Below are positions 15,565-46,053 of a DNA stretch of 64,000 nt, piece after piece. The notes under the pieces were generated by a model. The model had not been told where the DNA came from, searched no databases, and was given only the letters and a program-made list of their open reading frames with translations. The stretch spans positions 1,054,001-1,118,000 of the forward strand of contig OZ237742.1 in NCBI GenBank assembly GCA_965178125.1, in the 5' to 3' direction. The DNA comes from Bilabrum cf. latius. Its lineage: Eukaryota. Every line of letters starts with the position of its first letter. Within the stretch, counting starts at the first letter, position 1. The translations under genes and the position numbers were made by a program.

Positions 15565-18500
15565 TCAGGCGATAGTATCAGTCCCAAAACTCATGCTTTC
15601 GTCACCCTCTCCATCTGATTCAATCACACTTGGTAGTGATACCCTTGCCAACCCAAAGGCAGCTGCTGATACGCGGTGGCTTGAAGCCTTTGTTGGCTCG
15701 CGGGTCTCGTCGGCCGGCGACAGCTTTGAAGGAGTCGCGCCACTGGCAGCATCAAGTGCGCCAGCCTGCTAGATATCGCCTGTAAACCCTACTCCTCCAG
15801 AGCCTATTCCAAGACTACAATGTGAACTAAACTGCGTGCCATCCGCTGCATCTTTCGCACCTCCAGCTTGGGACACGTTGCGACCTCGTCGAATACTGCG
15901 GCCACTAGCAGCAGCGCTGTGAGCGTGCTCACGCGCTTCTGAACTGGAGCGCGCCATTGCTTTGGCTTCAAACTTTGTCAAAGCCTTGCTTGACGCGCCT
16001 TCAGAAACTCCAGCGACCCGAAGGTCCCTAAAAGCCGCTTGTCGCACCGACTACCGTTGCAAAGCTTCCAGGGAAGCCCGGCCGAGCGTCGACTGCAACA
16101 GGCGAAACTTGACACGAAATCGTCTTGCAAACAGCTCAAGCATCGCACGTACACGCTTTATAGTGATTCGCTTGCGGAGCAATGCACGAATTCGCCCCGT
16201 GGAACGCGGTTTTGGCATCTCGGCGCGCCTCTAAGCACCTGCACTTGTAGCACCGATGGTTGGCTGTTCATCGCCCAAGTACTCTCCCTCAATGTGGCCA
16301 TTCACCGGTCCACAGCGCTCTAAATGAAGATCTAGCCTAGTATCTACCCAAGTAGGTCCGGATGATGTCAGTCTGGATGATGAGGACGTGGAGCGGCCTT
16401 CGTAGTCTGCTTGGCTCGCCTGCTGGCTAGCTCCTGGCAGCGGCTATAGTGGCACCTTTCTGGACACCTCAAGGGAAGCATCTTCGTCATTTTGACCCCC
16501 TGGACTTACAGTTCCGTTCTAATCGCACTCAATACCATCGAAGCGACCCAAATCATGAGCGATATGTTCCTAGCTGTCGGAGTGCATCGCCACGTCGGCG
16601 GCTGCGCCCGAGAAAGGATCGTCGGTGGCCCACCGTCGCTTTGTAAACTCTGGTCTCTGCACCAGCTACAGCCAGCGGGTACCAGCTGGCAATTGCTGTG
16701 ATGTTGGCTGGACCAGACCCTCGGTGCGCACCTGTGACTCTGTGAAAGACCGGAGTGCTGAAGCTGTGGGGTCAGCGCCATGGCTAGTTGAGCTTCTCTA
16801 GCGATGCAATACGCAATCCAGCGCCTCTACGCCGGACTGTGAGGGTGGAAACAGCCATGGATGCACGGCTAGCACGCCGGCATCATACCGCTATTCAACG
16901 GATACCTCGAGCAAACCCCGTAATAAATCCAAGCACTCCGGGCTCAGGCTTGCAGGGAGCAGATGCCAGCTGACTCTGCCCCGCCGAGCCGCAGCAAGCT
17001 AACCAGCCTCCGAATCGCCTTCGAACGGCATTCTGCCAGCCAGCAGCCAGAACAGGGTCACTCCCAATGACCAGTAGTCGCTGGCCCTCTGCCCCTGGTG
17101 CTTGAAGAGCTCAGGGGCCATGAAGAGAGGAGTGCCTGCGATGCCTGCAACGAATGGCTGGTTTTCACGGTACATTCGGCCCTGCCGTGCACTCCGGGTC
17201 GTCTATTGTGCACTCGCATCAGATTCACGGTGAGCAGCAGAGTCTCTGGTCTTCCTGGATGATACTGTCCGAACCCAGCTGGCCATCGCGGCTCCGTCGT
17301 GTTTAGTGAGGCTAGACACCTTCTTTGCGAGCACATTGCCACCGGATGTACGCTGTTCAAGAGATTTTGAGTCACGATGAAGTCCGTGGCGACGGATAGC
17401 ATCAGCAGCGAGATCAACAGTGCCCGAGCTATCTGCGGAAACAATCTGCACGCGGTGCACTTCATACCCGGAGCTGTCTTCGTCAATAGACCCGCAGGGG
17501 TCTGCTACGCTTCGCTTAGTTTTCTCTGCCTCAAGCCTCGACTGTGAAGTGCGACTTGATGTGCTCGTAGACTATCCTGAGGCAGCTTGGCTAGTAGGCA
17601 TGGTAGCAGATACCGGGACAGGAACGGAGCTAATGTGCATTGCTGCATACGGCCTGGTGGCTGTTCCAGTCACTTTGTTGCTGCTGCTCGGCAAAACAAC
17701 TTTGGACAGGCCAACGGCGCGATGGAGAAGCGCTTCTTCGCAGCCAAGCAGCTAGTTGGATGGCACGGCAAGCGATGCTCTGCCGCCGCGCCGCGGGTCT
17801 GTGATGAGCGACCTGGCGCGTGCCTCCCGCAGGACTGATTCTGCGCGAGTACGAGCTGAACTCCAAACCGACGACCAAGCATGTTTAAGATCCGGCGACG
17901 TTGCAGCACCGGAAAGAATATCATGTGGATCATCTATGTCTGAGCCAGCATACCCTGAGTGACTGCTCAAGCTCCACTCGTCAGATCCCTGCTCTGCTAC
18001 AAACAACTTCGGCACTAAAGACTACCACTTGAAACCGTCCTCGCAGTGCGTTGAATGGGCGGGTGATGTGACTGCAGCTGCAGCGAGGGCAATGGCATCA
18101 ATATCTTCACTTAGACCAGACTCAAGACGGGAAGTAGCCCCACTGGAGTCTACAAGCCTCCTCGCAGCCATTTCGCAGGAGGTTCTCACGGCTTCAATGA
18201 CTTCCAACTTCTTCGATCTTGGCGCACCTTCCGTTGCTCTCGACGCCTTCGTCGATGTGGGGCGCTGCTTCCCAGAATTCAAGCATTCCATTACGAAAAC
18301 GATGTCAAATAGCATTGAATCCTTTTCTAGAAGAACGTTCAACGCATCGACGGACGCCACCGCGGTTATTGCTAGGTAAAGCTGCTGCACTGAAGCAGAG
18401 GCATTCATCTGGTCAGCTAACTCGCTCGTCTCACATCCAGTCAAGTTTACTATAAGTACAGTGGCATGACGCACGATTACCTGAGCCCCGTCACCCTTTA

Positions 18501-21500
18501 GATTGTCAGGAGCATGCAAGAGCGGTAGCACCAGATGAAGATCGTCATGCAGGTCGATTCGAATTCGCTTCCAGAGCTGACCCTTACGTGATCCCTGCGG
18601 ATTGTTGGCTAACCTTACATGGTGTGTTCTGCTGTCGACTCTGCTCTGCTGCAGCATAGGCATCTATAGCTTGGCTCCTTCAAGGCCAGACGGCGGCTGT
18701 GCACTGCTGCGCTGCATCGTTCTAGTTAAACCATAGTCCAGCAAACGGGCCCTAATTCCGTGCTCTAGCACAATATTTGAAGGCTTAATATCCCTGTGTA
18801 GCACTCCGGCTCGATGCATGCCTGCAAGAGAGCAGCTCAACTGCCTTGCAATGACCCTCACAGCCCCCTCCTGCATGCGCCATCGGCCCGGACGCGAGTG
18901 CACGAGCGCAGCTAAGTCCTTCCCGTCCACAAGTTCCATCACGATTCCCACTTCGCCATCCCCTATCACCACACCTTCCAGCCTGCAGGCGCCAGGGACG
19001 CCGTGCCCGGCACACCGCAGCATTGCCAGGATCTCGCTGCGAACCACGTCAGCGTTCATCTACGCATGCTGGCCAGAGTAGCCAGCAGAGAAAGAATGAT
19101 GATCAGAACATTGTGAGCCCTGAGCGCGGCCACGAAGCTTCTGCGTGATCTTTAGGGCGTACTGTTTCCCGGTGGACAGGTGCACAGCGTGGTACACCCT
19201 AGCGAATCCACCTTCGCCCAAGACCTTCAACCGCTTAAACTCGTGCATCCGGAAGCGTGGAAGGCTGGGCAAATCAATGGGCATTGCGTTGCCAGTTGAT
19301 GATCTGGAATTTGAAGATGCTTCAGCTGGTTGAAGCCCAGGCGCAGAAATTGCCACTACATGTTCGTCAGCATTAGACTCATTTATCACCAGAATATGCA
19401 CGCTCAGTTTGCTCGCGTGCGGTATTCTAGCCGCTACTATCTCTGAACTTTGGAATTCACCTGAACCCAGTGAAGCAACCGCAGTGAATCCACTGGCGTG
19501 ATCTGAGAAGCTTCTATCGGGAATCAACAGCTGTTCTGGCTGAGGCCGTGACGGTTGCACACGTTGCGCGGCTATCGCAAAGCGAGCCCACGAGCTTATC
19601 CATGCCAGCATCTAGGTAGAAATGCACGCATTCGTGGCTTGTGAAGCACCGCTTGGTTCTGGTCCATCTTGTGAGGGTGGCGAGGACTGGAGCAGCTTGC
19701 AACGAAGATCTTGCAGCCACCTCTGCTTCCATTCAATCCCACCGCTATCTTGACTTGCTCCTTGTGCTGAAATTGCCTCACCAGCACTACTCAGATGAAT
19801 GAAATACCGTTCAGACCCTCGAAGTTCGGCCAACCAGCTGGACTTGATCGCACCAGGGAGCGGCGTACTTATCGCTGGCACACCTACGAACCAGTGAAGG
19901 TATTCTGCCCAGAGTAGTCCATGAGACTTGGCCCCGGTATGCTCACCAGCAGGCTGCGCAGCAAACACGAACAGCAGGCCAAGCTCAGAGAATTTAGATG
20001 TCACTTCATGCGTTAAGACGGGAGACACTGCGACCTCTGCTGCCTTGGATACCGTACCTGGCTACTCGGGCGCTCGCTCGCCGAGTCGCCAGGCTAGCAG
20101 GCTGCTCTGCAGTATCGGCCTACGATCTTGCGCTGGGTCTTCATCAGTATAAAGCACAGTGGCTGGCAATGCGCCGACGACTGCTGCCTCCACCTCGCCA
20201 CTCGCAATGCCAAGCAATGGAACCAAGCTCTAGTTCATCCGCTTGAGCTCCACCTTGATTCGAAGGAAGAGCTCAGCGCTGCCTGCCACCGCTGCGGCTC
20301 GCCAATTGCACAGCCTCGTAGTTTGCCTGAGCCCATACTTTTTAGACCCACCAGACTATTGAGAGGTCTCAACAACAGCGGAAACCGGATCCTTACAGCC
20401 GTTGAAATTTCTGCCAGCGACCTGAGATCGGATCCAAGCAACGCGCACGAAGCCCAGCGGAGCCTGCATGCGAACAGCCCCATACCGGGAGCAAATCGTA
20501 TCAACCTCAGCACCTATACGCCTTCGCAGACCAAATGCCGCAACTGGGCCTGCAATGTCCGCAATGGTCAAGTAGCCCTTCAGGTACACTGTTGCAACGA
20601 CGCACTGCCCCAGGCTTGCAGTTACTACTCGAATACCACGCAGCGGATCCAGCGAGGCAGTGTACAGCTTGTGGTTGTCCAGACCATCATAGCCACAGTA
20701 ATCTCGCTGTCGACCAAGCGCTGCCTATTTTTCTATGAGTTTGAGTGGGATCAGAGTTGAGGCAGCTTCTTGCAGTCGCATCCTGGCCGCTTCAGCAACG
20801 CGAGCTGCCTGCATAGATAGCTGCTGCACACGATGAAGCGTGCGCAAGACTGCCGAGCTACGGTTCACCTAGGTCAGAACAAAATGCATTGTGTACACAC
20901 TTCCTGCAAATGTGGTTGCGAAAAGCTCGAAATCCAGTCGATCAGACCCGGCCTTCACGGGGGTGTTTGCAAACACGAGGCTACATACCCTGGCTGCTTC
21001 GCCCTAACTCCGGACCAGCGTGCCTTCCAGTAGCGCCTGCGAGATCCTAAACAACCCACTCGAAACCAGCAAGGACACGCCAAATGCAAGGGAGGCGGTG
21101 TAGATGGAGCTGCCGTACAGCCGCACCGCCCCAATGGTGAAGATTACTGCCGCCAACACTGGAGACGAATTCTGCACGTCCATCGTCCGGCTAAAGCAAG
21201 ATTTCGTTGAGATCTCCAGCAGAAACAGCACATGGAAGATTGCAACAGAGCAGATGGCAAGAAGGTAGATAAGAAGAGATCTGGTGGGATCAAGCAGACG
21301 CCCCTGCGAGTGCGCCTGCCAGCCGACTGCTGCCATAGCAATACCTGCAATTAGCCTAGGCGTGAACGATATTCCGTGGGACAGGACTGCACCGATGTCA
21401 CTCCATTCATGCAAGCCTGCAGTAACCTCAATGCTTGCCATCTGCACCGGACCGCCAACCGAGCTGAACGCCAGAGACAACCCCACGGCAGCCATCACAA

Positions 21501-24500
21501 ATCCGGAGCGTAGAGGAAGTCCGATCGTATCATGAAGCTGCACGTCTGGTGCGTCCATTTCTTTCAGCAGCACACCAACATCGGGAAGTAATACCTAGGT
21601 CACTGGCCCAAGCTCGCGTCCATAGAAATCGTCTAAAATCTAGCTGCACGTCTCAAGCATTCGAAAAACCGGGTAATGGCGACTCGAAGCCGTGTCTGCA
21701 TTGCTTGGTAGGTCTGTTGGCCCTTGCGAAATGATGGACTGAAGCCACCGTGGGGGTTTTCCTAGCTCTGCTGTACCATGCTTCTGTCTAGGGTTCCAAA
21801 TCTTGTCGGCGCTTGGGTTTCCATGTGATGGGAGCACAGCCCCGCACACCGTGGAGAGCGCAGCTTGCAAGCCACGTAATTTATCTACAGGGCTAGTTCC
21901 ATCCGCATGCTGGTTTTGACCTGGAGCAGGCAGCGCCATAGAGAAGCACGCAACCTCTGCATTTGATGAGGGAGAAGTGTCCTTGGCCGACGAAGCACGA
22001 GAGCTAACGCTTCGGATCCATTGCAGTATCCTTGCCAAGCTCTGGCGGAGCCTCTACGCATCCAAGAGTGAAACATGAGAGTCCTGGCCTGCTTTATTCG
22101 CGACACCACCCCGAAAGCGGTACGAGGACGGCGTGTTGTCTCTAGATGCTGCTGCTGCCACTGCAAGCTGCCATTGCACGACAGCTTCAATAGCTTTGGA
22201 GAGCTCTTCCAACACCCTAGACACCTTCTGCACGGTACTACGCGACGCGCATAACACGTGCGTTCTATCTGTATCAGCGGTTAGATTCGCTGAGGACCAC
22301 GATTTAGATGCTGCAAATGCGGCAAGCCTGCTGGCTTCAGCTCGCCCTCCCCCAACAGAAGCCCATTCCTGCGGCTGCTGCTTGAGCCCCAGCAGCCCCA
22401 CCACCATGGCAGACTGGGACGAGGAGGGGTAGGCGATGCCAGCCCGGAGCTAGGTGCCGCGTGATGACGCTCGGGTGGATGCCTACGCAAATCGTAGCAC
22501 GGCAGCCAGGAATGAGAGACACGTGGCCACTCTGCCCGTCCGATAGTCCATTGGTTCCCTCGTGCGACAGGGCGTGCGAAGCCCGGCTGCACAGATCCAT
22601 TGCGATTGTGAATTTGCAGAGTCTTGCTGGTCTGGTGCAAGCCAGGTGCCCTCCATTCCATCGACGCATATCGTGTCAATCCTTGTTGAATTTCCAATCG
22701 AGGCCCACCCTAGTTGGCACAAATTCGCAATTCTGACCCGCTGCTGCCCTGAAATTACGCCAAGTGATGCCGCTGCTACTGAAACCTCCGTGTCCGCGGT
22801 GGATGCCTGCTCATATGCGAGACAGATACTATGAAGCAGCCCGCGGCTAACAGCATGAAAAGTGTTGTTTCCCTACGCAGCAGGTTGAGACTACTTCCAG
22901 ATTGGGTCCAGAATGGACGCCTGTTGCGAAGGCGAAACAACCGGCGGACTGCCTTCCTATACATAATCCATACACGCGCACAGTTCCTGTACGCGCTCTA
23001 TTCCAGTTGATTTCACAGCCCCCCCTGCCGGCATGTCCGCCGAGCTTGTGACTTCGACTCGCATGCCACGGGATCTAGATGTGTTGCGGCTCTATACCGT
23101 CTGCACAGCCATGACCACCGGCCTGGCCTCGAACGCCATCACGCCTGCCTCCATGCACTCCTGGGCGAAGGGGGGCACCTGGTCCACAACAGAGTCGATG
23201 ATCACCTGCTGCTGGCGGATGGATTGAGCTTGCAAATCTCTGAGCTTCACCCGCGCCTCGGACACGCGCCACTTGACAAATGCCTGGTCTAGACCCATAA
23301 CAGACGGGTACGCCACCATGATAAACGAAGAGTAGCACACTAAATCAATAAGAGCTCCCAGTCCATTCAGCCCCAATGGGCTGAAGAAATCGTACCTGAA
23401 CTCCTAAGGAAACCGGTCGAGATCCATCCGTCCGATTGGCCATGCGTCACCAGCAATGCTTACAATTGTAAACAGGCAGACCGACCAGACAATATAGCCG
23501 GCTTGCATGGAAATCCAAGGCACAATGGCTCTGTCGAAGTCAACGGCGGCGAGAATCGGCCACATGATCGCAGTCGCGAGAGCCACGATGGTGCCTCGGC
23601 CAGGCCCGAGAAACAGATCCAGGCACACCGCGTACGTGTAGGCCAGCACGGCTGACACGACTGGGACCGCAACGGTCGAAGTGTGCTGTAAGCCAGCAAT
23701 CGAAGCCGCCAGGATTCTTGCACGCCGCTCTTGCCGTTGCACCCCGCCGCCCGCGCGGCTAGGTCTCGCAGGGCGTGCACTGCCGCTGCTGCCACTGCGA
23801 GGGCCCGGCACCGCTGCAGGGTACACGCTTGCACGAGAGAACCTCCCGTCAACGAGAGAACTGCCAACAGTAAGTAAAGAGTCCAGACGCATAGCATGAC
23901 ACGGCCGCTCTGACTGCGATGACTATTCAGTGGTCTTGGTTGAGTGGGAGGGTGAATCGCTCGAGGCAGCCACAGCCACTGATCCGCTCACCAAGCCACT
24001 GCTCGATTGCCGTATAATCTCCTTCACGCGCATTGAGCCCCCTGCCAGACTCTCATAGTTAGAAGTACTTGATAAATCGTCTCCTTTCTTCGTTTTGCCG
24101 CCAGCAGCTCTGCGATTGGCCGTGGTATTCAGATGCCCGCCCCTTGTTGCGCAGCCTGGCCACCCGCATGCCGATAGTAGGCAGGGACAGCATCCGATCA
24201 TGACACCATGGGAAGGATCAGCATCAAATAAGCACGGCCAGGTCAGTCGCAGGCAGCATCGCGACAGGGAGATGGCGGCGGCTTGGCCATCCGGGGAGCG
24301 CAGCCAGGTCGTCTGGCTGCTGCAGGAGGGCCACGAGGCCTTGCAGGCACTGCAGCAGACATCAGAAGAAAAAGGGCTCGCTGTAGAGTTGCAGTGGGCC
24401 TGCGCTGCTACCGATGCACGGTGTTCGCTGTCTGGACCGCTGCCGACTTGATTTGGAGTAAAATGGACGTGCTGTTTGGTTGCACTTGATACTGCAGTTT

Positions 24501-24753
24501 GCGCAGGTGCACCCGTTTTCGCGGCCATCACGACGGAATCCAGCATCTATGCCCATTGCTGTATGAAAAATGCGACCAGGGCCGGAAGCAGCACAATGAT
24601 AATTCCCAGCATTGTTACTTCGATTGGCTGGGCTATGAGATTAGCTGCAGGTGCTTGCCCAGCGGTGGGCGACCTAGCTCCTTGGAGAAACAGGTTGACC
24701 ATAAATATGAAAATGACTGTCGAAACTACGAAGAAGGCGCTCGTCAGTCTCAT
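15565..24753 (-). CDS. Paralogue A: multi-TM tandem pseudo-cyclase / Ser-Thr kinase fusion (~3,060 aa); TAG=Gln; 5' end uncertain
   Basis: One frame open for 9.2 kb with ~35 TAG and no TAA/TGA until 15565. Two TM clusters; cyclase-like [18 protein letters not shown] and [14 protein letters not shown]; kinase motifs [44 protein letters not shown]. Confidence 0.85.
18914..19050. repeat. 137-bp tract identical between paralogue A and C (40106-40242), diverged in B
   Basis: Base-by-base comparison; encodes [46 protein letters not shown]. Confidence 0.95.
23105..23220. repeat. 116-bp near-identical tract shared by paralogues A, B (32097-32212) and C (44144-44259)
   Basis: Direct comparison shows only 2-3 variable positions; encodes [39 protein letters not shown]. 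Confidence 0.95.
24232..24306. repeat. 75-bp tract identical between paralogue A and B (33467-33541), diverged in C
   Basis: Encodes [26 protein letters not shown] reads WLSSRSG[TAG][17 protein letters not shown]. Confidence 0.95.
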
Positions 24754-25231
24754 TGTGTGATGGTCCAATTTGATCGCGAAATGAAACGATATTGCTCGGC
24801 AGCACCACTCCTACGAACACAAGAGTTGAAATAGCAAAGTCTGTGGCAAAAAAGCAGCATTGTACCACCAAAAGTATCACATTAATTTGCAAAAGCAATG
24901 CCTCTTTGATGGGCAGACTGTGAAAGCACTTGGCACGTACAATTGGTATCGACGGAGGCAGGACGACCTCACTCGTGGCAGCAGCTTAAATCGCCAGTAC
25001 GCCCCGGCAATACGGGGTAGATGTGTCCTAAAAATACTAAACACGCAGTATCGCTTGGCGAATTCGTTCGCTTGCTTCGTAAATTGACCAAACATCAAGA
25101 ATTCCGCTGCTCATTCAACGCTCGTCACACAAGAAGTAGTCGCAATCATGGATCGGATTAAGCCCGCACGTGGTCGCCAAAACCACCTTAAATTAATCGA
25201 GAAATCGAACTATTGCGCTATAGCAAGATTT

Positions 25232-28200
25232 TCACAATCTGCCGGTTGCTGCAGAACTGCCAGGCTCCTCAGATACACTTGGCAGTGACCCGACTCCAGC
25301 TCCAAATGAAGACGGCAACACCGGTCGAAACACATCCAGCGTTCCACTTCTGGGCATTGCCGGCGACGTGCGAGGGCCTCCGGTGTGAGCAAATCCTACC
25401 GGTAAAGATTTGGTGTTGATAGCAGCCTCGCTGTGGGGGCGTGACTCAGAGGCTGCGGCCGGTGGCGGGTCTGCGTCGGCATTGCGCTACCGGGAACCGG
25501 CAGCCCCACTCAATCTAACTCCGCTTTCGCCCCCTTGCACAAGCCCATAGCTATTATCTCTAGCTGGCTACAAGGCCTGTCTTTCAATCGCCCTCTCTTT
25601 GTAACTCTGGATCGACCTGTATGCGACTGCCTGCGACACTCCGGCTGCGAGCAAGTCTGCCACAGCGTCATCCGCCACCCGCTGCTTCCAGGTGCGGACG
25701 CTCTGCGACGCCGAGAGCTGCAAGCTGAGCCTCCGGACGTACAGCTCAAGGATCGCTCTGATCTGTACAACCATGTGCTACTTGCTCTGCTGTACTCGGA
25801 TCTGCTGGGACGTGCGGGGACGAGCGGCGGCACTGTGTTCTCTCATGGCGGACCGGGCCGCTTGCGCGTCGTGCTCGTCGCCTAGGAGCACTGGCGTCGC
25901 GGTAAAAGGGGTGCTGCGGTGGCACCGGACCAAGCACGACCCGATGTTGCCAAGCATTGTACGGGACTTGCGGGCCTGCGGTCGGGCTCGTCCGCGGCTG
26001 GTGCCCGGATCGTCGAAGCCGACATGAATCAGCGGCTTTCCTTTTGCTGAACGGAGCTCTCTGTCCTTCCGCTGAGTGGCTGCAGATTTGCCAGGTTCAC
26101 TCTGGCTAGATTCTGCCCAGACTCGTCCGTCGGCTGCTTCAGAGTCCGCTAGGGATGAGTGCACTCTCGGTGATCGCGCACCGATGCTGTCTCCATTGGC
26201 ACGGTAGGTACTGGCCTAGTCCTTGGCAACTTCTAAAGAGGCCTGCAAACTAGTGGTATTGGACATGCGTGCAGCGCGCTTGCGTAGCCATGGGTGAGTT
26301 TTCATCTGTCGCGCACCATACCTTCGATCTGTGTTTACCTCCAGCAGCCCTCGCAACGCATCCAGGCAGGCTGGACTGAGGTCAGCTGGGAGCACGTGCC
26401 AGGCGATCCTACCCGCTTTGGCATTCGCATCAATTTGGTGTCTATCCCGACCTTCGAACGGCATTCTGCCAGCCAGCAGCCAGAACAGGGTCACTCCCAA
26501 CGACCAGTAGTCGCTGGCCCTCTCCCCCTATTGCTGGACAAGCTCGGGGGCCATGAAGAGAGGAGTGCCGGCAACCTCCGCATTGAATGGACGATGCTCA
26601 AAGAACATAGTGTCGTCAGCAACAGCGGATCCCGAGTCATGCTGTGCTTCGTGGTGATTGATACCGGCGACAGCTGTTCTGGCCCATCGGGATACAGCGC
26701 TAACTGCGGTTGCTGCACTGTCGTAGGAGCGCTGCAGATGAATTTCAAGCTCTGCTGAAATCGCTGAAGCTGATGACGCTGCAGATGAACCTGGGGGCAC
26801 GACAGCACTTTTTGGGCTGGCATCGAACCCCGACGGGTCATCAGCAGTATGTCGCGAGCCGACTGACTCGTTCGCGACACGACCTGTGTCAAGATGTGGC
26901 CTCCTGCTGGTCTAATGTGCGGCAACTGTACACTTTTGTCGCCGATCCTGACCAGTGCTACAACTTCTGCTACCGGCTAGAATGTCCTCGCCGCTAGATC
27001 CTGACCGCTCCAAGCGAACAGCTCCTGCTGCCACGTCGTCGGATGCAGCTGCTCGCCCACCATGTGGCTAAAGCGAATGCAAGTGGGGCACTTTAGCGCG
27101 CTCCGACCGCAGGAGTGAGGGGGAGGGGACAATGCTACTATATCGAGAGCAAAATGCTGCAGCCTGCCCGTCAACCGCCGACTGCTGAACTCGCATGCGG
27201 GCGATATAGCGATACAACTACTCTGCACAGTCAGCAAGGCTATTGCTGCAAAAAACGACACTATTGTCACGGAGTTGCACCTACCATTGATGTGCACTTG
27301 TTTTATTCATGTAAGCAACCAGTCCATTGCTGTGCTTTGTGCTGCTCGGACCACCTTCTCCTCTTGACGCTGTCCACACTTCATTGACTGACGAAATGCA
27401 TAGCTGGCTGCGATGCGGCTGCACTGCAGCGCTGCTTCTCGCAGGTGCACTTGACGATTCATTTGGAGCAACATTATTGTACTCGACGGCAAGAATGCAG
27501 TCAAACAGGTCTGGTTCTGACCGTAGGCAGTGATGCAATTCAAGTCCGCTTGTCAAAACGGAGACCGACAGCTTGCCAGCACTTGAAAATTGCAAGGCTT
27601 GTCCCACCCTTACTACCTGATCCTTGTGAACAAGACTCGTACTTGAACGCCCACTCGAGGAATTCTACATCGGCGTTCCAGTGAAGGCAGGCACGACTAG
27701 AACGCTGGCAGGGTCGCTGGGTTGGAGACTACGCAGCGACGGTTCACGCCCATTAGACATCTTTGCCGGAGAAAGCAAAGGAAACACCAGCCTAAGCTCA
27801 TCTCGCTGGTTGACCGAGCCCTGCATCCATGCATTCGAGCTCAAGTCGTCGGCAGTAAGCTGGCGCTGAGCCGGCTGTTCGTTGCTAGCCTGAGCATTTG
27901 CATCTGCTGGAATACCACTGTCGGGTTTCACTAGGTCAGCGAGCCCAAAATCGATGAGAAACACACATCCCTGGGAGTCAATCACTACGTTTGAAGGCTT
28001 GATATCCCTGTGCAGAACTCCGGCTCGATGCATTCCTGCGAGTGTGCAGATCAACTGCCTTGCGATCTCTCTCGTAGCACCCTCCCGCATGCGCCAGCGA
28101 CCCGGTCGAGACCGCACCGTCTGTTCAAGATCAATGCCATCAATATACTCCATCAATATTCCGGTCTCTCTGCCTCTGACTACAACTGCTCCCAGTCTGC

Positions 28201-34141: not shown

Positions 34142-35217
34142 CGAATTACGATGCTGTCACCTGCGTACGCGCCCGAACAAGTGATGATTCAGCCGAATCT
34201 TATTGGATATATACTCATGTCCATGAATATGCTTCACTTTGTGTTTAGGGTCACGGTAGAACGCGTCGCAATTATGCAATAGCGCTCAAGTATCGAATAC
34301 TCAGCTTGCTGCAGTCTCACGGAGAATAATAGCAGTCGGCTTGGATGAACTTTGATCAATTATCTACACCAATTACCGCAGGTCGGTCAGAACACGGGCA
34401 GTACACCGTAAACGTGGCACAGGCAATCAAACTAACCTTCCATTGGACCTGGGCTGGCTTGGTCGCAAGTTTGCACTGCACTGTGGCGCAGAGCGATTAC
34501 CTCATCCGTAGGCTCCGATGCCTCCTTATTGGAGTAGCTTCCGAGCTAGATCTACCTATATTTAAATGATCCTAACGCCATATGGGTGTTGATGCCAGAG
34601 TGGGAGTGCGTGAACGTCTCGTTGGGTTCCGCTGGCGGTCGCAACCGGGAGGGTTCGACCAAGCCAACGGATTGCTTTGCGGTGACGCGCATACCCTCTT
34701 TGTATTCAGGAGATGGGCAGAGATTGGATACTTTTTGGCGTACGCGCTGGCATCAATCACAAGCAACACCTCTGTATCTACCCACAGGCACTGCGCACCC
34801 CATACTAGTCGCTGTGGGTCTGCCAGTGCTGACGCCCAATTGAGATAGAGTGGCCACTGGCAGCTGTGCGGCGCAACTCGAGATGCCATGGTCGCTGGAT
34901 GGCACAGCGAGACACTTTAGTCAGGTCATGCCGGTTTAGCAGGTCCTTGATTGAGGGAAGACGATGCTATGCAAGGTGGGGTGGTTCAAGCTTGACACCG
35001 GCAGCTGCTGCTCGTGGGGGCTTTCTTCTGCCTGTGCACCAGCACTATAGCCTCTGCTCAGCATGATCGGCGGGGCATCGAACTCCACCACTCGACGAAG
35101 GCTCCCGAAGACTCGGAATGTTGCATTTGGCCGTTCGGGCTGCAGACTGTCATTCTACACTTTCAAAGCTAAGACCGAATCAAAAGATTTGAAGAGGACA
35201 TCAGTTTGCAAGTTATC

Positions 35218-36693: not shown

Positions 36694-36822
36694 CTGAGGT
36701 TTCGGCCTCTCTTTTTTAGCATCTAGCTTAGCAAAGCCGAAAATCCCATAATAGATCTGTTACGAGTGCAATTTTGCAATAAAGCGGCTCGCCTTGACTG
36801 TTGGTACCGTGCGGCTGCTCCA

Positions 36823-39800
36823 TCAAGTGCGATCACCTGCATTCCCACTACTTTCGAGTAGCAGCCCCGCCCAGCTAAACTCGACATCATCGTCCATGTC
36901 GCCCGAGAGGCTCAGCTCCCTGGGTGTCTCGGCGGGATCGTCCTCCTCCACCTCAACCACGCTGGGGAGGGACGAGTGCGCAAGGCCGTACGACTGGGGG
37001 TCAACCGATGTGATAGGAGGAACAGGATTCGGCGATCTGGCGCCGACTCCCCCAGCCACGCCGACCGACGCACTGTACCGAATTGCAACTGCGCCCGAGG
37101 CCTCACCACCCCCCGCGTGCAGTTGCTGACCCTAACGGGTTGCAGGCTAACCCGCAGTTCTCCCTGCAGTTTGAGGCATGGCATGAGCCAGCCTCACCTC
37201 TTGCCTGCGATACCTCGCGATGGCTCGCGTCGCCACTGTCTCGGATACCCCCGCAGCCAGGAGATCGTTCATGCAGTCCTGCCGAATCACTGTGAAGCTT
37301 CTTATCTCCGTGTTGCTACTACCTCTGCGCTCACTGGCTTCTTCCTCGACCCGATTAGCTCCACCTCCTGCAGCAGTGCCATAATTGTCATCTGCAGCGT
37401 CTTCGCTAGCCTGAGTCTCAATGGCTATGGCGGCCAGCCAATCCCTCCTCCGCACGTACACTTCCAGGATTCCCCGCACGAGAGCCACCATCTTTTCTCT
37501 TCGCGACTTTGCCATGCGATGGGCGGCTCTCTAAGGCCCGCCCAGCCGCTTTGAGCGCTTTGCACTCTGGTTGGATGCTGCAACACGAGGCACCTTGACA
37601 GAGGGAGCTCTCAGGTCGTCACCGAGGGTCAGCATGGCCATGCCACCAGCCGATCGGCAAGGAATAATGTTCTTCCGCATGGATATCTCCTGCGCAATCT
37701 GATTTCTTTGGAATGATGCTAGTCCCGGGGCTCCGGCACGCCATGGCCTCTGTGAGCTGCGTCTGCCTGGAAGTGAGCACGGCTCGCGACTGCCTGCTTG
37801 AACGGCTTGCAGCTCATGCTCAGCTTCTCCTGGACTCTAGTTCATGGCAGACTTTGAATCTACCGAATTTCCTGCTCCACTCGCGGCAGATGCACTGTCA
37901 GCAGTGGAGCTGCCTTGTCGCCCAGTCCCGTCCAGCCATGGGTGCTACATTAGCTACTATGCGCCATACCTGCGACTCGTGTTGACTTCCAGCAGCCCCC
38001 GCAAGACGTCCAGGCAGGCAGGGCTGAGATCCACCGGAAGCAGGTGCCAAGCAACTCGGCCATTCTTTGCGTTGTCGAGCTACATGTACAACGATTCTCC
38101 TTCGAACGGCATTCTGCCAGCCAGCAGCCAGAACAGGGTTACTCCCAACGACCAGTAGTCGCTGGCCCTCTGCCCCTGGTGCTTGAAGAGCTCGGGAGCC
38201 ATGAAGAGAGGAGTGCCGGCGATCCCTGCAGCAAAGGGCTGCTACTCGCGGAACAGCAGGCCGTCCCGCGCGGTGATATTTGCCGAGGAGCCACCTGCGG
38301 AGGGGTGCAGCGACTCGGCTGACGCCCTGGATTTGAATCGCTGCATGGAAGACTCGGTCGCCGCCCTGGCCCATAGGTCAAGACACCACGCCTCTTCGGG
38401 GACTGGGCCAGCTTGCGAAGGCCCATGAGAAGCAATCTCACCCTCTCTTGCAGCATGACCCGAGCGTGGTTTGAGCGCAATGCCAGCAGCATCGAGACCC
38501 ACAGTGAATGAATCATCTGCAGGCGCGCCCCCCGGCGAACGAGGAACCTTGAACGCAAGGCGTCCATCTGCGGACTAGCTACCCATTTCTCGGACACTGT
38601 CCTTCGATACATCTGTAGCGTCACCAGTTGCCACTCCAGCAACAGTGTCAGTGTGGATCTCCGATGTCTGCGCAACATAGTCATGGTCGTGGCCCATGCT
38701 ATCAGATGGATCATTGCCTGACGGGTTGCTTCCTGCAACGAACGAAGTTTTGAAAGAGGCATACAGCCCCGCTCTATCAACATGCGAACGTGCCATCGTT
38801 CCAGATTCGCTGGCAAAGGAGGGGGTGGTCCCCTTCAGCATTACTTGACCAGAGCCAGACGCAGTGGTTCCTGATGCAAGCCCAGACCTGACTGCACTTG
38901 CCTGCACCTGGGTATGCATCCGTGCTTGACGCAAGCCCTAAGCTGAGACGGAACAGTTCTCCGCCACGCACGCCTGCTCGGTTGCCAAGAGGCTGCCTGA
39001 CGGATGCACGTGGGAGCCTAGCTTGGCTGCGTCTCGCATCGCTCTCGCTGCCTGCGCACGGCGCTGCCTGCTGGATTTGCGCGCCTTGTGCACGGCACCA
39101 TCAATGCTGTTCCATATATCAACGTTTACCTGCACACCCACGGCAGCGGGAACCCGAACGCAATGTATTGGCATGCCTACGGTCTTGTTGCCAATACCAG
39201 CCGCTTCTGAATTCGAGTGCCGACCAATAGGATCAGAATAGTCTCCCACCGAAGGCTGACGCTAAGAGCTCCCGAATGCCGCACTAATAGATCGAGAGAC
39301 GCGGCCCAGCCTGTCATGCTACTGCTGCTGCGCCCGGATGATTGCCGCTCGAACGTCTTGAATGCCTTGCTGCAGATCAGCTGGATGCGTGTCATCACCT
39401 ACAACGATGGCACAATCTAGCAGATCAACATCCCGCTCGATCACTTTTGCTGCCCGTCTGAGCGAAGCGACCCACGTTGATGCTACCCCCATCTCTGCTA
39501 GGTGCTGCTGAATCTCCGCGCGCCAGGCCCCCAGGGCACGAGATACGCCTTGCTCGTGCCCGGTGATTTCCGAATCATTGCAGACTGAAACAAGAATCAC
39601 GCTGGACATCCCATCGATTGAAGATTGGCTTGATCCCACCCACTCGGCGGAAAGCCCAGGACTGCCTGGAACGCAAATTGCTCGTGGCGGGGAGTACAGC
39701 GGCAGACCGAGGTGCAGATCGTCGTGATCGTGCAAATGTTCACTCGCCCAATGCAGTGCAGGGATGCGCAGCGGTGCGTTGATTCCTGCCGCACTCGGCA

Positions 39801-42800
39801 ATTCGGTGGAACCGTAGGGCCCGACTGGCCCGACTTGCTCGATGCTGCTACCTGCCCTGCTCAGGCAAAACTTGGAAGATGCATCCATCGGTGGCTTCAA
39901 GGCTGCACTGTGAGCAGCAAGCCCAAAGTCGACCAGACGAGCGTTGGATCGGCCATCGATGAGTATATTGGAAGGCTTGATGTCTCTGTGGATAATTCCA
40001 GCATTGTGCATCTTCTCAACGGTGCGAAACAGCTGCTTGGCCAGACTGCTAGTGGCCCCTTCGTGCATTCGCTGCCTGCCCGCCCCCAGCCGCATCAACG
40101 AGGCCAAGTCCTTCCCGTCCACAAGTTCCATCACGATTCCCACTTCGCCATCCCCTATCACCACACCTTCCAGCCTGCAGGCGCCAGGGACGCCGTGCCC
40201 GGCACACCGCAGCATTGCCAGGATCTCGCTGCGAACCACGTCTGTGACTGCGACTCGCTTGCCTGCACGAGAGTGTTGCGTGTCGTCGGGGCGCGAGTGT
40301 GTGGCCCAGGACTGCCGGCTTGGGGCACTAGAGGCGCCTTGACGAGCTTCATCGGTGATTTTGAGGGCGTATAGGCGACCTGTAGGACGGTGTGCGGCAA
40401 GAAAAACCCTTGCAAAGCCGCCCTCCCCCAGCAACTTGAGCCGTTCAAACTCGTGCATTTGAAACCGACGAGGAAGAGGAGGACCATCCTCGGACTGTTT
40501 CGGCGGATATACCGACGAAATCATCGAGTCTGACTTTGGCTGGCTTGCAAGCTACTGAGTTGGCCGAGCCTTGCCGGCTTCAGAAGAATAGGATGACTCG
40601 GCAGCTAGATTGGCCGCTGCGGTCAGAGACGTATTGGCCTAGATCAACAGCGCAAGTCGCCCCGGCTTGCACGGCGCTGCGGTCAGTACGGCTGAACTTC
40701 CATAAAAGAAAGAGCGGGTGACTCGAATCAAACCAACGCCATCTTGCGTACCTGCATCAGCTGCGTCGTCTAAGGATGCCTCCAAGCCGCTGCTGACACA
40801 GGTGCACCACTATGCTAGCCATGGCACCAGGGCATCATCTGCTTCCGAACTCTTCTACAACTCCGTTTCAGACAAATTCTAACTGGTTGCGACTCGCTCT
40901 AGCGCGTGGGACATTCGATCAGTCCATGCTTGCTGCAGCGCATTCAGCTCACCTACTTCGAAAGAGTCCGACTGATTATCCTCGCGCCTCTCGTGCTCGG
41001 CGCCCAACACCCTGAACGATACGGGCATCCCATGGTCGACGCAATCGATGCGCATCCAGATGCAATGCACCCTGTGCAGGAGATGGTAATGTGGCGCGCG
41101 GCGAAACGTTGCGGTCCGCTGCTGCTGCCCTCCAGGCTCCTCCGCCTAGCGTTCGCGCAAGAACGGTTCCCACACGAATACACGAGGAGGCCGCCGCAGG
41201 ATTGCGTGTAGTTGGCCCGACCCATCTGCCTGGAGTTCCCAGCCCAGAAGAGAGGCAAGTGCGGGGTGCTTCTTTGCGGCGCTTTCGGCGAGGCTCCGCG
41301 ACAAAGCCACAGTCGGGGTTGCTTGTCCTGCCATCCGGGGTTGGTCGACACTGCATTGCGACAGACTAGCCATGCCTTCTGCTATGGCAGCACTGGTTGC
41401 GATGGGACCGTCCTAGGCATCAACGTCAAGGTATAATACCTGGGCTGGGCCGCAGCCCACCCAAGCCGCTGATATCTCACCAGAGGCAACGCCAATCGAC
41501 ACGTGCACGTCGGCCTACAGATGGGTCAACGCCGCAAGCATAGCTGCGGCGAGCTCAGCAGATCCACGCAGCGCTTGTGCTGTGATTCCGGTGTCCTCTC
41601 CGAGCCGAAACCGACCAGCTACCGATGATACCTTGGAGGCGTACCAGCCGATGCTTAGCTGTCCAGTGTGCCCTCGAATCCTGACCCCACCAAACTTCGA
41701 GCAAATCTTGTCTGCTACGGCGCCGAGCTTCCGGTGTAAACCGAAGCTAGCGACAGGGCCGACTATGTCTCGAATCGACTCGAAGCCGCCGAGCGCAACA
41801 GTTGCGACCACTGCGCCGCCCAACTTTGCACGTACCATCGGAGGTTCGCTTCTTGGGCTACGTCCAACCATTGCCGCATCAAACGGGCTACGCGATCCGT
41901 GCAATTGCTGTGACTGGCCGTGCTCAAGGAATATTTTCTTTTTGATCAGCTGAACTGGCACAAAATGGGCAGCAGCCTACAGCAAGTTGTCTCTGGCGCA
42001 GTCCGCAAGTGCAGCTGCTTGTTGCAATTGGCTGCGGAGCAACGAAAGCTGGCCGGCGCTACCGTGCGAGCGCTGCAGCTGGTCGGCCATGAAATAACCA
42101 ACAAACATGATAGGGACGAAAAGTCCAGCGAGGACGCCAAAGCTGTGGTCCAGGCTCATGTGCTTGGCTCCATTCCACACGGAGGCGCAGTCATCGGCCG
42201 CGTCCTCAAATGATCTGACCACAGATGACCCCAAAGATGTCTGAAGCAGCTAAAAAGGCGCTGGGGAAATTGCAAGCGTTGCCAGCAACGCGAACACAAC
42301 AGAAGCCACGGAGCGACCAAACCATTGGAAAGAAGCTTGGCTGGCGAGCACAGCCACGATAACGCCTGGTACATTCATCACGTTTGCGCTCCACGTCAGG
42401 CACGACTCGTGCCCGATCTCCAAGTACCAGAGCGCGTGAGACATAGATGTGCCGAGTACAGCAGCGATGAGCGCTGGTCCTACCACGGATGCTTCAAGCC
42501 GTTGCTGCCTGCATCGGGCGATGAGCCCAACACAAACCAGAGATAGCCCCGCAAGGAACTTCGGAAGCATCGCAGGAAGCGAGCGAGCGAAGGATAGTAC
42601 AGCACCATCCGTTGACTGCCGTGCAACAACATCCATGCTAGCTGCTTGGACGGCAGCAACTAGCGCGCTGAACGCTAGCGCGACGCCCAATAAAACAAGG
42701 ACGGCTCCAGATCGAAATGGAGCCGCGTCCATCAAATCACTGTTGCTACTCTGCAAGTGGCTGGCATTTACTAGAGTGCGCATTTTGGCCTGGGGCAGCA

Positions 42801-45800
42801 GGATCGCACTGATACCGCCCGCACGAACGGAGTGCATCTCGTCCAGCATAGCTTGCCACGCGGGGAAGCGCGCCAGCTGCTCTGTCTACAACCCGCCTAT
42901 AGAAGCAACGCTCTCTTGAGTATCAACAGTCGCATCCTCACGCGCTACAGGCTGCATGATTTGTGCAAGCCATATTGGTGCATCGTGACCGAACGCACTA
43001 CCCCCACCTGGCGAAATGTGCGGTGGGCCGTCCGCAGGGAGGCTGGCAGCCCGCAGCACCAGTTGCAGGGACTCACGCAGTGCTTTCATGTCGCGAGCGT
43101 GGCAAGGCAGCAGCAGCAGTATTGCGCTGAGCTTGGACCGCTACAACCCGTCATGCTTGTCGACTCGCCGAGAGGAGGGGCTCAAGAGCCACTCAGCGAC
43201 TTTTCGAAGGGCAAGCAGCAGCTGCTAGATCTGAACCAGGTCACGATTTAGCGTTGAGTCGTCTCTAGCACCTCGTCGACCAGTCATCTGCTCCCCGCCA
43301 AATTCACCCTACGCTGCCAGGATGGCTAAACACCAATGCAGCGCTGCCTGAACGCCGTCACAAAGCATCTCCAGATGATCAGTGACCTTTCGGATGGCAG
43401 CGGCTGTGGTGGCGATGTGCGACTACTAGACTCTGCTCGGCCCGCACCTGCCACACTTGCAGCCGCTGGCTAGTTCCTTCGCCATAGGTCGCCCGCCACC
43501 GAATGTCGACCATTCCTGCGGCTGCTGCTTGAGCCCCAGCAGCCCCACCACCATGGCAGACTGGGACGAGGAGGGATAGGCGATACCAGCCCGGAGCTAG
43601 GTGCCGCGGGATGACGCTCGGGTGGATGCCTACGCAAATCGCAGCACGGCAGCCAGGAATGCCACAGCATCGGCAGCTCGCCTGGATACCGGTGACAGTA
43701 CTGTTCTTGACCTAACAGGGGTACGAAGGCCAGCAGTAGCCATCCACATGGGCGCATTGGCGGAAAGACCCCTGGCTATCCCAACATCGATCTTGTCCAC
43801 CTGTAATGCATTCATTGCAATCCTCGCCCACTGCACCTCCTCCATCTTTGCAATCGCAATTCGCTATGTCCTCGTCAGCACGCCGATCGATGCGGCCGCT
43901 ACGGACTCTTCTGCTGATGTGTGAGCTGCTGTCCTGTACAGCTGGACGATGCGCCCAAAAAATGGCTGTGGTCCAGCTTCAGCTGGCTATGAGCTCATGC
44001 CATCGAATGGGGTGTCAAAGAAGCCTGACTGTGGCGATACACTTGCTCGCCCAGCGTCCATGGCAGAACACAACATTTCAGCACTGGCTGCTGCATCACG
44101 ATGTTGCGCATCCGCCGATAGAGCTGCGCCCCCGACGAATGTCACAGCCATGACCACCGGCCTGGCCTCGAACGCCATCACGCCTGCCTCCATGCACTCC
44201 TGGGCGAAGGGGGGCACCTGGTCCACCACGGAGTCGATGATCACCTGCTGCTGGCGGATGGCGCGTTTCTGCGCCCTTCGAAGCTGCAGCCTCGCAACTG
44301 CCTGGCGCCAGACTAGCAGTGAATGGTCCAGGCCTAATATGGCTGGAACTAGAACCATGGTGCACAGAGAATAGCCAATCAGGTCCACAACCACCCCTAG
44401 TCCATTCAATCCCAGCGGACTGCTGAAGCTGTACCTGTGTTCTTCGGGGAGGAAGTCAAGGTCAGCCCGGCCCAGCGGCCACGCGTCGCCTGTGAAGCTG
44501 ATCGTAAGGAAGAGCCCAAGCGACCATGCAATGTACGCAAACTGCATACCAGCCCAGGGCACAGCCGCCTTGTCATAGTCTAGGGGTGCAAGAATCGGCC
44601 ACAGTATCCATATTCCGAGCAGTTTGCTGCTCCCGCGTCCGGGGCCAGTAAACAAGTCAAGAGACACTGCAATCGACGTCATTACGGCAAGCGACACAAT
44701 GGGAATGGCAGTGGAGGACATGAACTGCAGCCCGGCAATGGAGGCAGCCAGAAGCACATCCCGAGGGGCTCTTTCGACGCCGGGGCTGCTCCCTGCCCTG
44801 ACTTGCGTCCCATTTCCCGCCTCTTGCGTATCTGTCGGGATTCTCCGAAGCACACCGCCTCCTTGCGAGCTCGACGACGATCTGCTGCTACGATTTTGAG
44901 ACAGGACGTGGGCAGGCGCCGCCGAGGGAGCCGTTACACACTTGCTGCCTTGAGTGAGTAGCACGTGCAGTTTGCGATGGAAAGTAGCGGCGACGCCGTC
45001 ACTCACTGCAGCCCCGCGAGGTGGAGTGGCCGGCTTCCCACTCGCTTCATCTGGTCCATACTCCACCCCTGGTTCTGTCTGGACTCCAGACACGCTAGAT
45101 GCTGCTCCAACCCGATCACCAAGCGAGGAGGAGTCTGCCGAGCTATTGTCAGGCAACCGTGTTGCGCCCTTGGTTCGCGTGGTGTGCACGCTCGCTGGGT
45201 CGCTCGTGGAGTTCTTCACTCCCTCAGCCATGCTGGCACTGTATCGGTTTACTGGCAGTACGGTGCATTCGTCCCTTGGAGAGCTGTAGAAGGGCATACC
45301 ATGCTAGAATTGGCTGCTCGCGCTGCTGCTGGCGTAAGCCGGCGACAGGGCGTCGCTTGACAAGCTGGTTGAGGCCGACCTGGTCTGGCCCCAGGCAGTG
45401 CGGCTGGTAAACGAGGCAGCTGGGCTTGTTCTGGCGCGAGAAGGGAGCGTGCATGGTCTGCTACAGCATGACAGGACCGGGCAGCATGCGGCGAGCAGAC
45501 CGCACCGCTCATCGGGGGGCACAAGGCAGGGCCACGAGAACTCTAGGCAGCAGAGCGAGGCGCTGACTGCTGCTGCCTAGCCTGACCGCGAGCTTAGCCA
45601 CAGCGCCCAACGATCTCCACACACACGGTTCAAACACCACGAAACCAATGAAGCATCAGTTGCGGCCGTAGCCACGGCCGATTGGCGGGGTCTCGGCGCA
45701 CGCTCAGTGGCTGCAGGAAGAACTCTGCCAGCTCCGACATGGCTACTACCGGCGAGTGGCGCTCGCTGTTGCTGTATGATAAGATAATTGGCCCACTGAT

Positions 45801-46053
45801 ACAGCGCATTCGACACTAGAGCTGACCAAACAAGCCAAAGCACAGCTACGATAGTTACGCCTAGTTCTGGCCGAGGCCTGGCGTTTGCCGTTATAGGTGC
45901 TTGAGCTGATGTTACGGAGCCATTAGTATGCATAAGTAACCCAGCTACAAGCACCAATACGGATACAAGCACGGCACGGCATAGCAGGGCCCAGCCTAAT
46001 GCAGCCGTGCATGTGTATTCATCCCTTGCGATTGTCCTGCGAACGTTTGGTCT
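36823..46053 (-). CDS. Paralogue C: multi-TM tandem pseudo-cyclase / Ser-Thr kinase fusion (~3,070 aa); TAG=Gln; probably has an unidentified 5' exon
   Basis: One frame open 46053 to 36823 (TGA) with only TAG interruptions. No ATG precedes the first TM, and a candidate CGCAG acceptor ends at 46037. Cyclase-like [16 protein letters not shown]; intact kinase motifs. Confidence 0.85.

Follow-up and report, generated by a model that had tools for sequence, protein, structure and literature searches.

What becomes of a membrane adenylyl cyclase whose chemistry has apparently been lost and to which a protein kinase has been added? This question is raised by three giant genes, here called A, B, and C, on the minus strand of a 64,000-nucleotide stretch of Bilabrum cf. 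latius (GenBank assembly GCA_965178125.1, contig OZ237742.1, positions 1,054,001 to 1,118,000). We refer to the whole stretch as the window and give all positions in its coordinates. A first-pass annotation of the window had described the genes as a tandem family of three membrane proteins in which two cyclase-like domains without catalytic residues precede a kinase. With little better than even confidence, we lean towards a reading in which the three genes are expressed paralogues, in a host that decodes TAG as Gln, and encode receptor kinases that use a dead cyclase as transducer.

The genes emerge as long open reading frames (ORFs) when TAG is read as Gln, with lengths of 3094 (A), 2969 (B), and 3049 (C) residues; under translation table 11, the longest ORF within them is 460 residues, in agreement with the earlier claim that the frames are visible only with TAG as a sense codon. 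The three frames contain 36, 30, and 35 in-frame TAG codons, respectively, and zero TAA codons, and all three terminate at TGA. Across the window, 15 ORFs (18,920 codons) hold 160 in-frame TAG and no in-frame TAA, and the terminator is TGA in 14/15 and TAA in 1/15. In the farnesyl-diphosphate synthase gene at 59636-60832, the single TAG (59897-59899) corresponds to Gln in 3/3 orthologues, which were taken from its 90% identity cluster and called under the standard code. The TAG columns of the paralogue alignment hold Gln or TAG in 37/165 aligned cells, compared to a Gln background of 5.3%, and in 10/20 when the columns are well aligned. Because the synthase orthologues and the paralogue TAG columns both show Gln, TAG = Gln, with TGA as the usual stop, is well supported. 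Neither a tRNA gene nor an Rfam family was found within the 64-kb window, and thus no suppressor tRNA was seen in it. The window is eukaryotic and intron-poor, with a G+C fraction of ~0.55-0.63, and the pattern suggests that this GC-rich genome with few introns has reassigned TAG and no other stop codon.

A, B, and C can be aligned from end to end at 37-38% identity, with conserved blocks in the same order, and every motif quoted in the first-pass annotation was found in them, most in columns that are invariant across the three copies. The family of three paralogues therefore stands as described, although the array is not strictly tandem: A adjoins B, but a DUF4419 gene on the opposite strand separates B from C.

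The domain that we call C2 links these proteins to cyclases most directly. An AlphaFold2 (AF2) model of gene C residues 1325-1560, built from 15 aligned sequences, had a mean predicted local distance difference test score (pLDDT) of 76.4 and a predicted template-modelling score of 0.74, with its elements in the order beta-alpha-alpha-beta-beta-alpha-beta-beta-alpha-beta. A Foldseek search of the PDB with this model gave 148 matches at E ≤ 0.001, headed by 3uvj_C (E 3.4e-7), and all of those listed (44/148) are adenylyl, guanylyl, or related nucleotide cyclases. The matches include soluble guanylyl cyclase, mammalian C1 and C2, Rv1625c, CyaB, AC9, AC8, and AC5, as well as photoactivated cyclases and a cUMP synthase. 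In the VIA structure search, 49/50 rows were cyclases and one was a GGDEF domain; the cyclases included 5o5k_A (Z 15.1, 178 aligned, root-mean-square deviation 4.1), 1cjk_A (Z 14.3, 155 aligned, root-mean-square deviation 2.6), and 7pdf_A (AC9, Z 14.7), and the helix ahead of C2 matched the helical segment present in Cya, AC5, AC8, and AC9. For comparison at the level of sequence profiles, three bacterial genomes supplied 28 Guanylate_cyc matches, of which one, L146, was dropped; the seed hidden Markov model (HMM) recovers the other 27 in the right frame. C2 aligned to these 27 bacterial cyclase domains in hhalign with probabilities of 78-80% and E-values of 1.4e-5 to 1.8e-5. The score was 40.4, whereas column shuffles averaged 11.4 ± 2.3 and 0/50 of them came up to it. 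The structure searches with the AF2 model and the profile comparison agree with the cyclase-like character that the annotation had given C2, and on the predicted fold we regard it as certain that C2 is a class III cyclase-homology domain.

C1 was aligned to the same 27 domains. Its core scored 26.5 in hhalign (E 0.0023, probability 12.5%) over 134 columns that correspond, in register and in order, to cyclase positions 78-217. For 150 column shuffles the score was 10.0 ± 1.8, with a maximum of 17.1, so that 0/150 reached the observed value, and the reversed alignment scored 13.5. When the three-paralogue alignment was scanned against the cyclase profile in 32 windows, the C1 core scored 27.8 and the C2 windows 33.8 and 35.3; the other 29 ranged from 7.2 to 18.6, and the top one among them overlaps the end of C1. 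Gene C carries a variable insert of ~100 residues after the first strand of C1, and the confident parts of its AF2 model are the leading helix (first blocks, pLDDT 88-91) and one helix-hairpin-helix stretch. Thus, the annotation's cyclase-like C1 holds up in profile alignment, where the core beats both shuffles and internal windows, but AF2 gives it no fold. We consider it probable, from these alignments, that C1 is a degenerate cyclase-homology domain.

The catalytic positions of both domains were read from hhalign alignments against the paralogue alignment, at low identity; residues are listed for C first, then A, then B. In C2, the column of the first metal-binding Asp holds Ala, Tyr, and Val, that of the second holds Gly, Gly, and Asp, and that of the substrate Lys holds Arg, Gln, and Gln; the helix bearing the Asn..Arg pair is aligned to a gap. 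The first-Asp column also lacks Asp in 8/8 database fragments that cover it. In C1, the second-Asp column holds Gly, Asp, and Gln, the Lys column Lys, Thr, and Lys, and the Asn column Pro, Ala, and Glu, with Arg kept in A and B only; in the paralogue alignment, no conserved Asp follows the putative first strand. Not one canonical catalytic position is conserved across the three paralogues, consistent with the earlier statement that the metal Asp pair and the N-x-x-x-R motif are absent or substituted. Loss of the cyclase catalytic residues from C1 and C2 is supported at the level of sequence, and cyclase activity in these proteins appears distinctly unlikely.

Kyte-Doolittle hydropathy gives each copy two N-terminal spans, then a block of ~4 spans (M1), and then a block of 5-6 spans (M2). 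Together with the invariant columns, this bears out for all copies the series of two spans, Cys-rich motif, ~4 spans, and 5-6 spans that had been proposed. In gene C, a Ser/Ala-rich low-complexity stretch runs from the Cys-rich motif up to M1, and M1 is the best-conserved part of the family outside the kinase. Confident predicted helices precede both C1 and C2, and each of the two cyclase-profile peaks follows a membrane block. The predicted models and profiles are in keeping with a putative M1-C1-M2-C2 layout like that of membrane adenylyl cyclases.

Downstream of C2, each protein carries a match to Pfam PF00069 Pkinase with E-values from 8e-38 to 5e-42 and scores of 130.7-144.7 bits, compared to a cut-off of 31.7 bits. 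The Gly-loop, the Lys of ALK, the helix-C Glu, a further 11-residue motif, and DxWSxG are invariant in A, B, and C. At the DFG position B and C have DFG itself and A has DYG; apart from this, the catalytic set of Gly-loop, beta-3 Lys, helix-C Glu, HRD..N, DFG, and APE is complete and unvaried. The top PDB sequence matches are AGC (PKA) and CAMK-like (MARK, BRSK) kinases. Pfam, the PKA alignment, and the invariant columns therefore agree with the intact kinase motifs reported earlier, allowing for DYG in A, and point to a C-terminal Ser/Thr kinase of AGC/CAMK type with intact-looking motifs. A feature absent from the earlier description is an insert of ~560 residues that splits this kinase. Three pieces of the domain align to PKA: the first reaches from the Gly-loop to the beta-3 Lys, the second begins at the catalytic loop and finishes with DFG, and the third covers GTP..APE and the remainder of the domain. 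The DFG and APE pieces are separated by 563 residues in C compared to 8 in PKA, with similar inserts in A and B. The insert is weakly conserved, open in all three copies, and retained in assembled contigs.

These contigs, assembled from four public runs and placed on 33000-49000, bear on the gene models. Contigs of runs X1 and X3 skip 93 nucleotides (nt) at the 5' end of gene C (46037-46129) and 160 nt just upstream of the gene B ATG (34161-34320), and one X3 contig skips 97 nt (48635-48731). All three skipped pieces have GT..AG borders on the minus strand and lie near the 5' ends of minus-strand ORFs. We read them as introns and the contigs as RNA-derived; the alternative is that they are deletion variants in DNA. 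Because the kind of run is only guessed in the records, it is the GT..AG joints that carry the spliced-RNA reading. With the 93-nt intron removed, gene C gains 30 codons and opens at an ATG at 46155, which is most likely its start, and the end of the array at 46053, as first annotated, proves incorrect, falling inside this intron. The 160-nt joint is probably a 5' untranslated region intron of gene B.

X1 contigs span gene C collinearly over 36780-46305, with the single GT..AG joint at its 5' end and none inside. One of them (40213-44172) runs without a difference from C1 through M2 and C2 to the kinase N-lobe, and a second (38164-40135) covers the entire kinase insert with no joint. With this cover, a division into one membrane gene and one kinase gene looks unlikely, as does an intronic nature of the insert; the contigs favor a single product of gene C but cannot prove a single transcript. 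The breaks between contigs, at 38128-38164 and 40135-40213, coincide with tracts that are identical in DNA between paralogues. Other joints inside gene C, for example from 38220 to 41774 and from 40242 to 43510, were considered as splicing and rejected; they have no GT..AG borders and stand at tracts shared by paralogues, and we read them as assembly paths between paralogues.

Synonymous sites between the paralogues are saturated, with a proportion of synonymous differences (pS) of 0.53-0.83, and for this reason the ratio of nonsynonymous to synonymous proportions (pN/pS) is unusable as a test of selection. By itself, pN is 0.19-0.26 in the kinase C-lobe, 0.27-0.34 in the N-lobe, 0.29-0.38 in M1 and C1, 0.44-0.47 in C2, 0.47-0.55 in M2, and 0.53-0.63 in linkers, insert, and tails. 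Some blocks have the same sequence in all three proteins and almost the same DNA: codon differences occur in 11/90 invariant columns within these blocks compared to 437/515 elsewhere, a count that leaves out the tract at residues 1911-1956, which is common to A and C only. Exact DNA matches of 41-137 nt connect pairs of paralogues. These results point to patchy gene conversion among the paralogues, so that M1, C1, and the kinase owe some of their apparent conservation to homogenisation. More distant database fragments keep the same motifs.

Several results weigh against reading the locus as a cyclase scaffold joined to a kinase. Pfam searches of the full proteins at E ≤ 1 returned kinase-type families only, and Guanylate_cyc (PF00211) matched none of the three. 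Among PDB sequences, the whole M1-C2 profile found no cyclase at E ≤ 10, the C1 profile found no cyclase row, and the C2 profile found one weak cyclase row (3et6, E 1.1), its top row being the unrelated entry 9x86_A (E 0.0053). The AF2 model of C1 has no fold (pLDDT 54); the VIA search with it gave Z < 5 throughout, mostly coiled coils matching the leading helix, and carries no information because of this low model confidence and these low scores. In hhalign, C1 against C2 was not significant (probability 0.06%), nor were the front 62 residues of C1 against the cyclase profile, and the HH-suite probability of C1 against real cyclases is just 6-17%. The loss of the first Asp from C1 is read from the absence of a conserved Asp in its front half, which cannot be aligned, the span counts come from hydropathy only, and the records label the runs with guesses ("RNA?"; for X3, "probably DNA"). 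The failures around C1, namely the missing AF2 fold, the missing Pfam and PDB sequence matches, the non-significant comparison with C2, and HH-suite probabilities of at most 17%, favor an account in which only C2 is cyclase-homologous, whereas C1 is a cytoplasmic loop of other origin and in part disordered. That would leave a kinase-bearing membrane protein of 10-12 spans whose one dead domain pairs with its counterpart in a second chain, as in bacterial six-transmembrane-span (6TM) cyclases. We think this account unlikely: the C1 core matches cyclase strands 2-7, in their proper order, across 134-151 columns; its scores of 26.5-27.8 exceed anything reached by the 150 shuffles (≤17.1) or the 29 other windows (≤18.6); and, like C2, it stands immediately behind a membrane block and a long helix that is predicted with confidence.

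Were the cyclase-like domains still to make a cyclic nucleotide or a related product, with the kinase acting alongside or downstream, the proteins would instead be bifunctional enzymes. The well-preserved fold of C2 fits this idea, as do canonical residues that survive singly (in C2, the second-metal Asp of B; in C1, the same Asp in A, Lys in B and C, and Arg in A and B), and according to the abstract of PMC10211241, the catalytic residues of pseudoenzymes have in some cases turned out to be relocated. However, zero canonical positions are shared by all three paralogues, the first metal Asp of C2 is missing from 3/3 copies and from every covering fragment, and the Asn..Arg helix of C2 has no aligned counterpart, which together make bifunctionality improbable. 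Least probable of all, to our minds, is that the gene models are artefacts, comprising several genes, unspliced introns, or pseudogenes in decay whose frames stay open through a high GC content and a permissive code. GC-rich DNA does yield many long wrong-frame ORFs, the linkers, kinase insert, and tails are almost unconstrained, and the 5' end assigned to gene A is provisional. Nevertheless, domain order is kept over ~9 kb in three paralogues despite saturated synonymous sites, and the contigs over gene C are collinear apart from the one 5' joint. Moreover, TGA and TAA make up ~1.8% of codons in non-coding frames, so that an insert of 550 codons would stay open by chance with a frequency of ~5e-5, and it is open in 3/3 copies.

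On the reading that we prefer, of a receptor kinase with a dead cyclase as transducer, each gene would give one polytopic membrane protein of ~3000 residues. Its chassis would be that of a 12-span membrane adenylyl cyclase: a first block of 2 + 4 spans, a helix, C1, a second block of ~6 spans, a helix, and C2, with both C1 and C2 apparently devoid of the residues for making cAMP or cGMP. The likeliest mechanism would have a signal reach the protein at its conserved membrane blocks, or through a ligand in the pocket between the degenerate C1 and C2, and pass along the two helices to a C1-C2 pseudo-dimer, whose conformation would gate the attached kinase. The enzymatic output would come from this C-terminal Ser/Thr kinase with its ~560-residue insert in the activation segment. 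The pairing of C1 with C2, the activity of the kinase, and the direction of signaling are inferred, and the scaffold would serve, as the annotation had suggested, as a sensor or allosteric module driving the kinase.

To look for relatives, we ran an exhaustive HMMER search with the M1-C2 profile against 1.84 billion representatives of a collection of ~15 billion predicted proteins. It returned 46 proteins, all fragments of 54-407 residues from Logan, ENA, and JGI assemblies, and among these 46 there was neither a full-length relative nor an ordinary cyclase. In JGI metagenome contigs, the M1-C2 region gave 156 pattern matches, of which 0 were confirmed. Neither a full-text literature search nor passages of PMC12223298, on protist channel-cyclases, yielded a description of a cyclase scaffold followed by a kinase. 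The earlier view that this architecture is not catalogued is thus consistent with the full-text and protein-collection searches, which are not proof of it; the same holds for our view that known domains stand here in a new arrangement, a cyclase scaffold and then a kinase.

The closest known systems each share part of this layout. The 12-span adenylyl cyclases (ADCY1-9 and others) have a membrane block, a helix, and a cyclase-homology domain, twice over, the order that is predicted here; C2 with its leading helix superposes on AC5, AC8, and AC9 (VIA Z 13.6-14.7, 180-190 residues), and C2 superposes on the VC1 domain of 1cjk (Z 14.3). Unlike those enzymes, the proteins studied here do not conserve the metal Asp pair, Lys, Asn, and Arg, and Pfam misses their C1 and C2; their first membrane block is split 2 + 4 by a loop of ~350 residues with the Cys-rich motif, and C2 is followed by a kinase and ~1500 further residues. 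Bacterial 6TM cyclases of the Rv1625c/Cya type combine a membrane block, a helical transducer, and a cyclase domain, and provide the best structural match of C2 with its helix (5o5k_A, Z 15.1; 7yzk_A, Z 13.4), but they are active single-domain homodimers without a kinase, whereas here each chain has two unequal, apparently dead domains.

Receptor guanylyl cyclases such as GC-A contain a kinase-type domain and a class III cyclase-type domain, one of them dead and regulatory. A, B, and C resemble them in placing both domain types in one membrane protein with one type seemingly dead. In receptor guanylyl cyclases, however, there is a single span and the pseudokinase precedes an active cyclase, whereas A, B, and C are polytopic and dead cyclase domains would precede a kinase with intact motifs; the receptor guanylyl cyclase layout is therefore not found in them, the order being reversed, the membrane part polytopic, and the cyclase residues absent. 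AGC kinases of the Greatwall/MASTL/Rim15 group have a kinase domain interrupted by several hundred residues that lie between DFG and APE. The split in A, B, and C resembles theirs in position, but the Greatwall kinases are soluble, act in the cell cycle, and are not known to carry a membrane or cyclase-like portion. Among multi-domain cyclases of protists, the P-type-ATPase-guanylyl cyclases of alveolates have cyclase domains fused to an ATPase membrane module. Ion-channel-adenylyl cyclases are likewise giant polytopic protist proteins with cyclase domains fused to a membrane module, according to PMC12223298. In these protist proteins, unlike A, B, and C, the cyclase is the output enzyme, is seen by Pfam, and is not known to be accompanied by a C-terminal protein kinase.

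Coordinates of the three genes, their parts, and neighboring features are collected in the table below. Other genes in the window encode farnesyl-diphosphate synthase, ATP11, U-box, and SCP2 proteins and further kinases. The synthase has ~50-57% identity to proteins of fungi, stramenopiles, and others alike. The 97-nt GT..AG joint lies at the gene for a 675-residue kinase. In a short stretch at ~34585-34700, which lies past the start of gene B in the gap before the DUF4419 gene, summed contig depth is far above that of the surroundings in all four runs; the bin 34602-35135 has a depth of 502 in X3, compared to 92 and 84 in the flanking bins, with many variant letters and loose ends. This stretch is probably a dispersed repeat or a multi-copy element.

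Features of the array and its surroundings, in window coordinates (aa, amino acids)
Feature	Position	Strand	Description	Basis
Gene A (P0001)	15565..24849	-	ORF of 3094 aa opening at TTG; first ATG at 24750	
Gene A helix and C1	22096..23271	-		paralogue alignment
Gene A helix and C2	20014..20796	-		paralogue alignment
Gene A split kinase	16852..19236	-	N part 18703-19236, C part 16852-17157, insert between	
Gene B (P0002)	25232..34141	-	ORF of 2969 aa	
Gene B helix and C1	31181..32263	-		paralogue alignment
Gene B helix and C2	29105..29875	-		paralogue alignment
Gene B split kinase	26285..28453	-	N part 27917-28453, C part ~26285-26590	
Gene C (P0003 with 30-codon N-terminal extension)	36823..46155	-	ORF 36823-45972, 3049 aa	
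Gene C exons	36823..46155	-	exon 1 coding 46130-46155; intron 46037-46129; exon 2 36823-46036	contig joint, frame, ATG
Gene C two N-terminal hydrophobic spans	45802..45972	-	residues 1-57	hydropathy
Gene C Cys-rich conserved motif	45463..45636	-	residues ~113-170	invariant Cys, Trp, and Pro columns
Gene C M1	44308..44757	-	residues 406-555, ~4 spans	hydropathy, conservation
Gene C long helix and C1	43303..44310	-	residues 555-890	AF2 helix, hhalign against real cyclase-homology domains
Gene C M2	42073..42720	-	residues ~1085-1300, 5-6 spans	hydropathy
Gene C helical segment and C2	41293..42000	-	residues 1325-1560	AF2, Foldseek, VIA, hhalign
Gene C kinase N-lobe, catalytic loop, and DFG	39901..40449	-	residues 1842-2024	Pfam Pkinase, PKA alignment
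Gene C activation-segment insert	38224..39900	-	~560 aa	between DFG and APE
Gene C kinase C-lobe	37903..38223	-	residues 2584-2690, GTP..APE to domain end	Pfam, PKA alignment
Gene C C-terminal tail	36823..37902	-	~360 aa	few conserved patches, no family match
Near-identical DNA blocks	~44500-44610, 44140-44225, 43500-43575, 40100-40240, 38100-38190		P0003 residues 455-486, 583-610, 800-822, 1911-1956, 2594-2625	
DUF4419 gene	35206-36693	+	between B and C; 6 TAG	Pfam E 1e-67
Kinase with insert	46628-48655	-	675 aa; directly upstream of array	
Protein with C-terminal kinase	49363-54636	-	1757 aa; N-terminal hydrophobic span, large insert in kinase; upstream of array	
ORF	10088-15364	+	1758 aa; 17 TAG; highly low-complexity (Ser/Arg/Pro/Ala-rich)	no Pfam match
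ORF	54704-59470	-	1588 aa; 8 TAG	no Pfam match

The purpose of the twelve membrane helices of adenylyl cyclases is an open question, and recent papers (PMC4821796, PMC11606603, PMC12414865, and PMC12505454) argue that these helices are receptors for lipids or other ligands rather than anchors. It is possible, although we hold this only tentatively and at less than even confidence, that in A, B, and C the whole signal-receiving apparatus of an adenylyl cyclase, comprising two hexahelical membrane blocks, the helical transducers, and the C1-C2 dimer, was kept under selection after the chemistry was lost and was rewired to a kinase. If so, the family would offer a natural experiment on whether the membrane domains of adenylyl cyclases act as receptors, a role that is debated: a scaffold kept without catalysis and joined to a kinase would show that it is worth keeping for the reception and transmission of signals alone, and the kinase fusion would give a cAMP-independent read-out in the form of phosphorylation. 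The arrangement would be the mirror image of receptor guanylyl cyclases, where control runs from a dead kinase to a live cyclase. The scaffold of membrane blocks and cyclase domains would then be a receptor and transducer in its own right, and the three proteins would represent a previously unseen class of eukaryotic receptor kinase. They also illustrate that stop-codon reassignment can hide whole protein families, in this case one that appears in the protein collection only as fragments.

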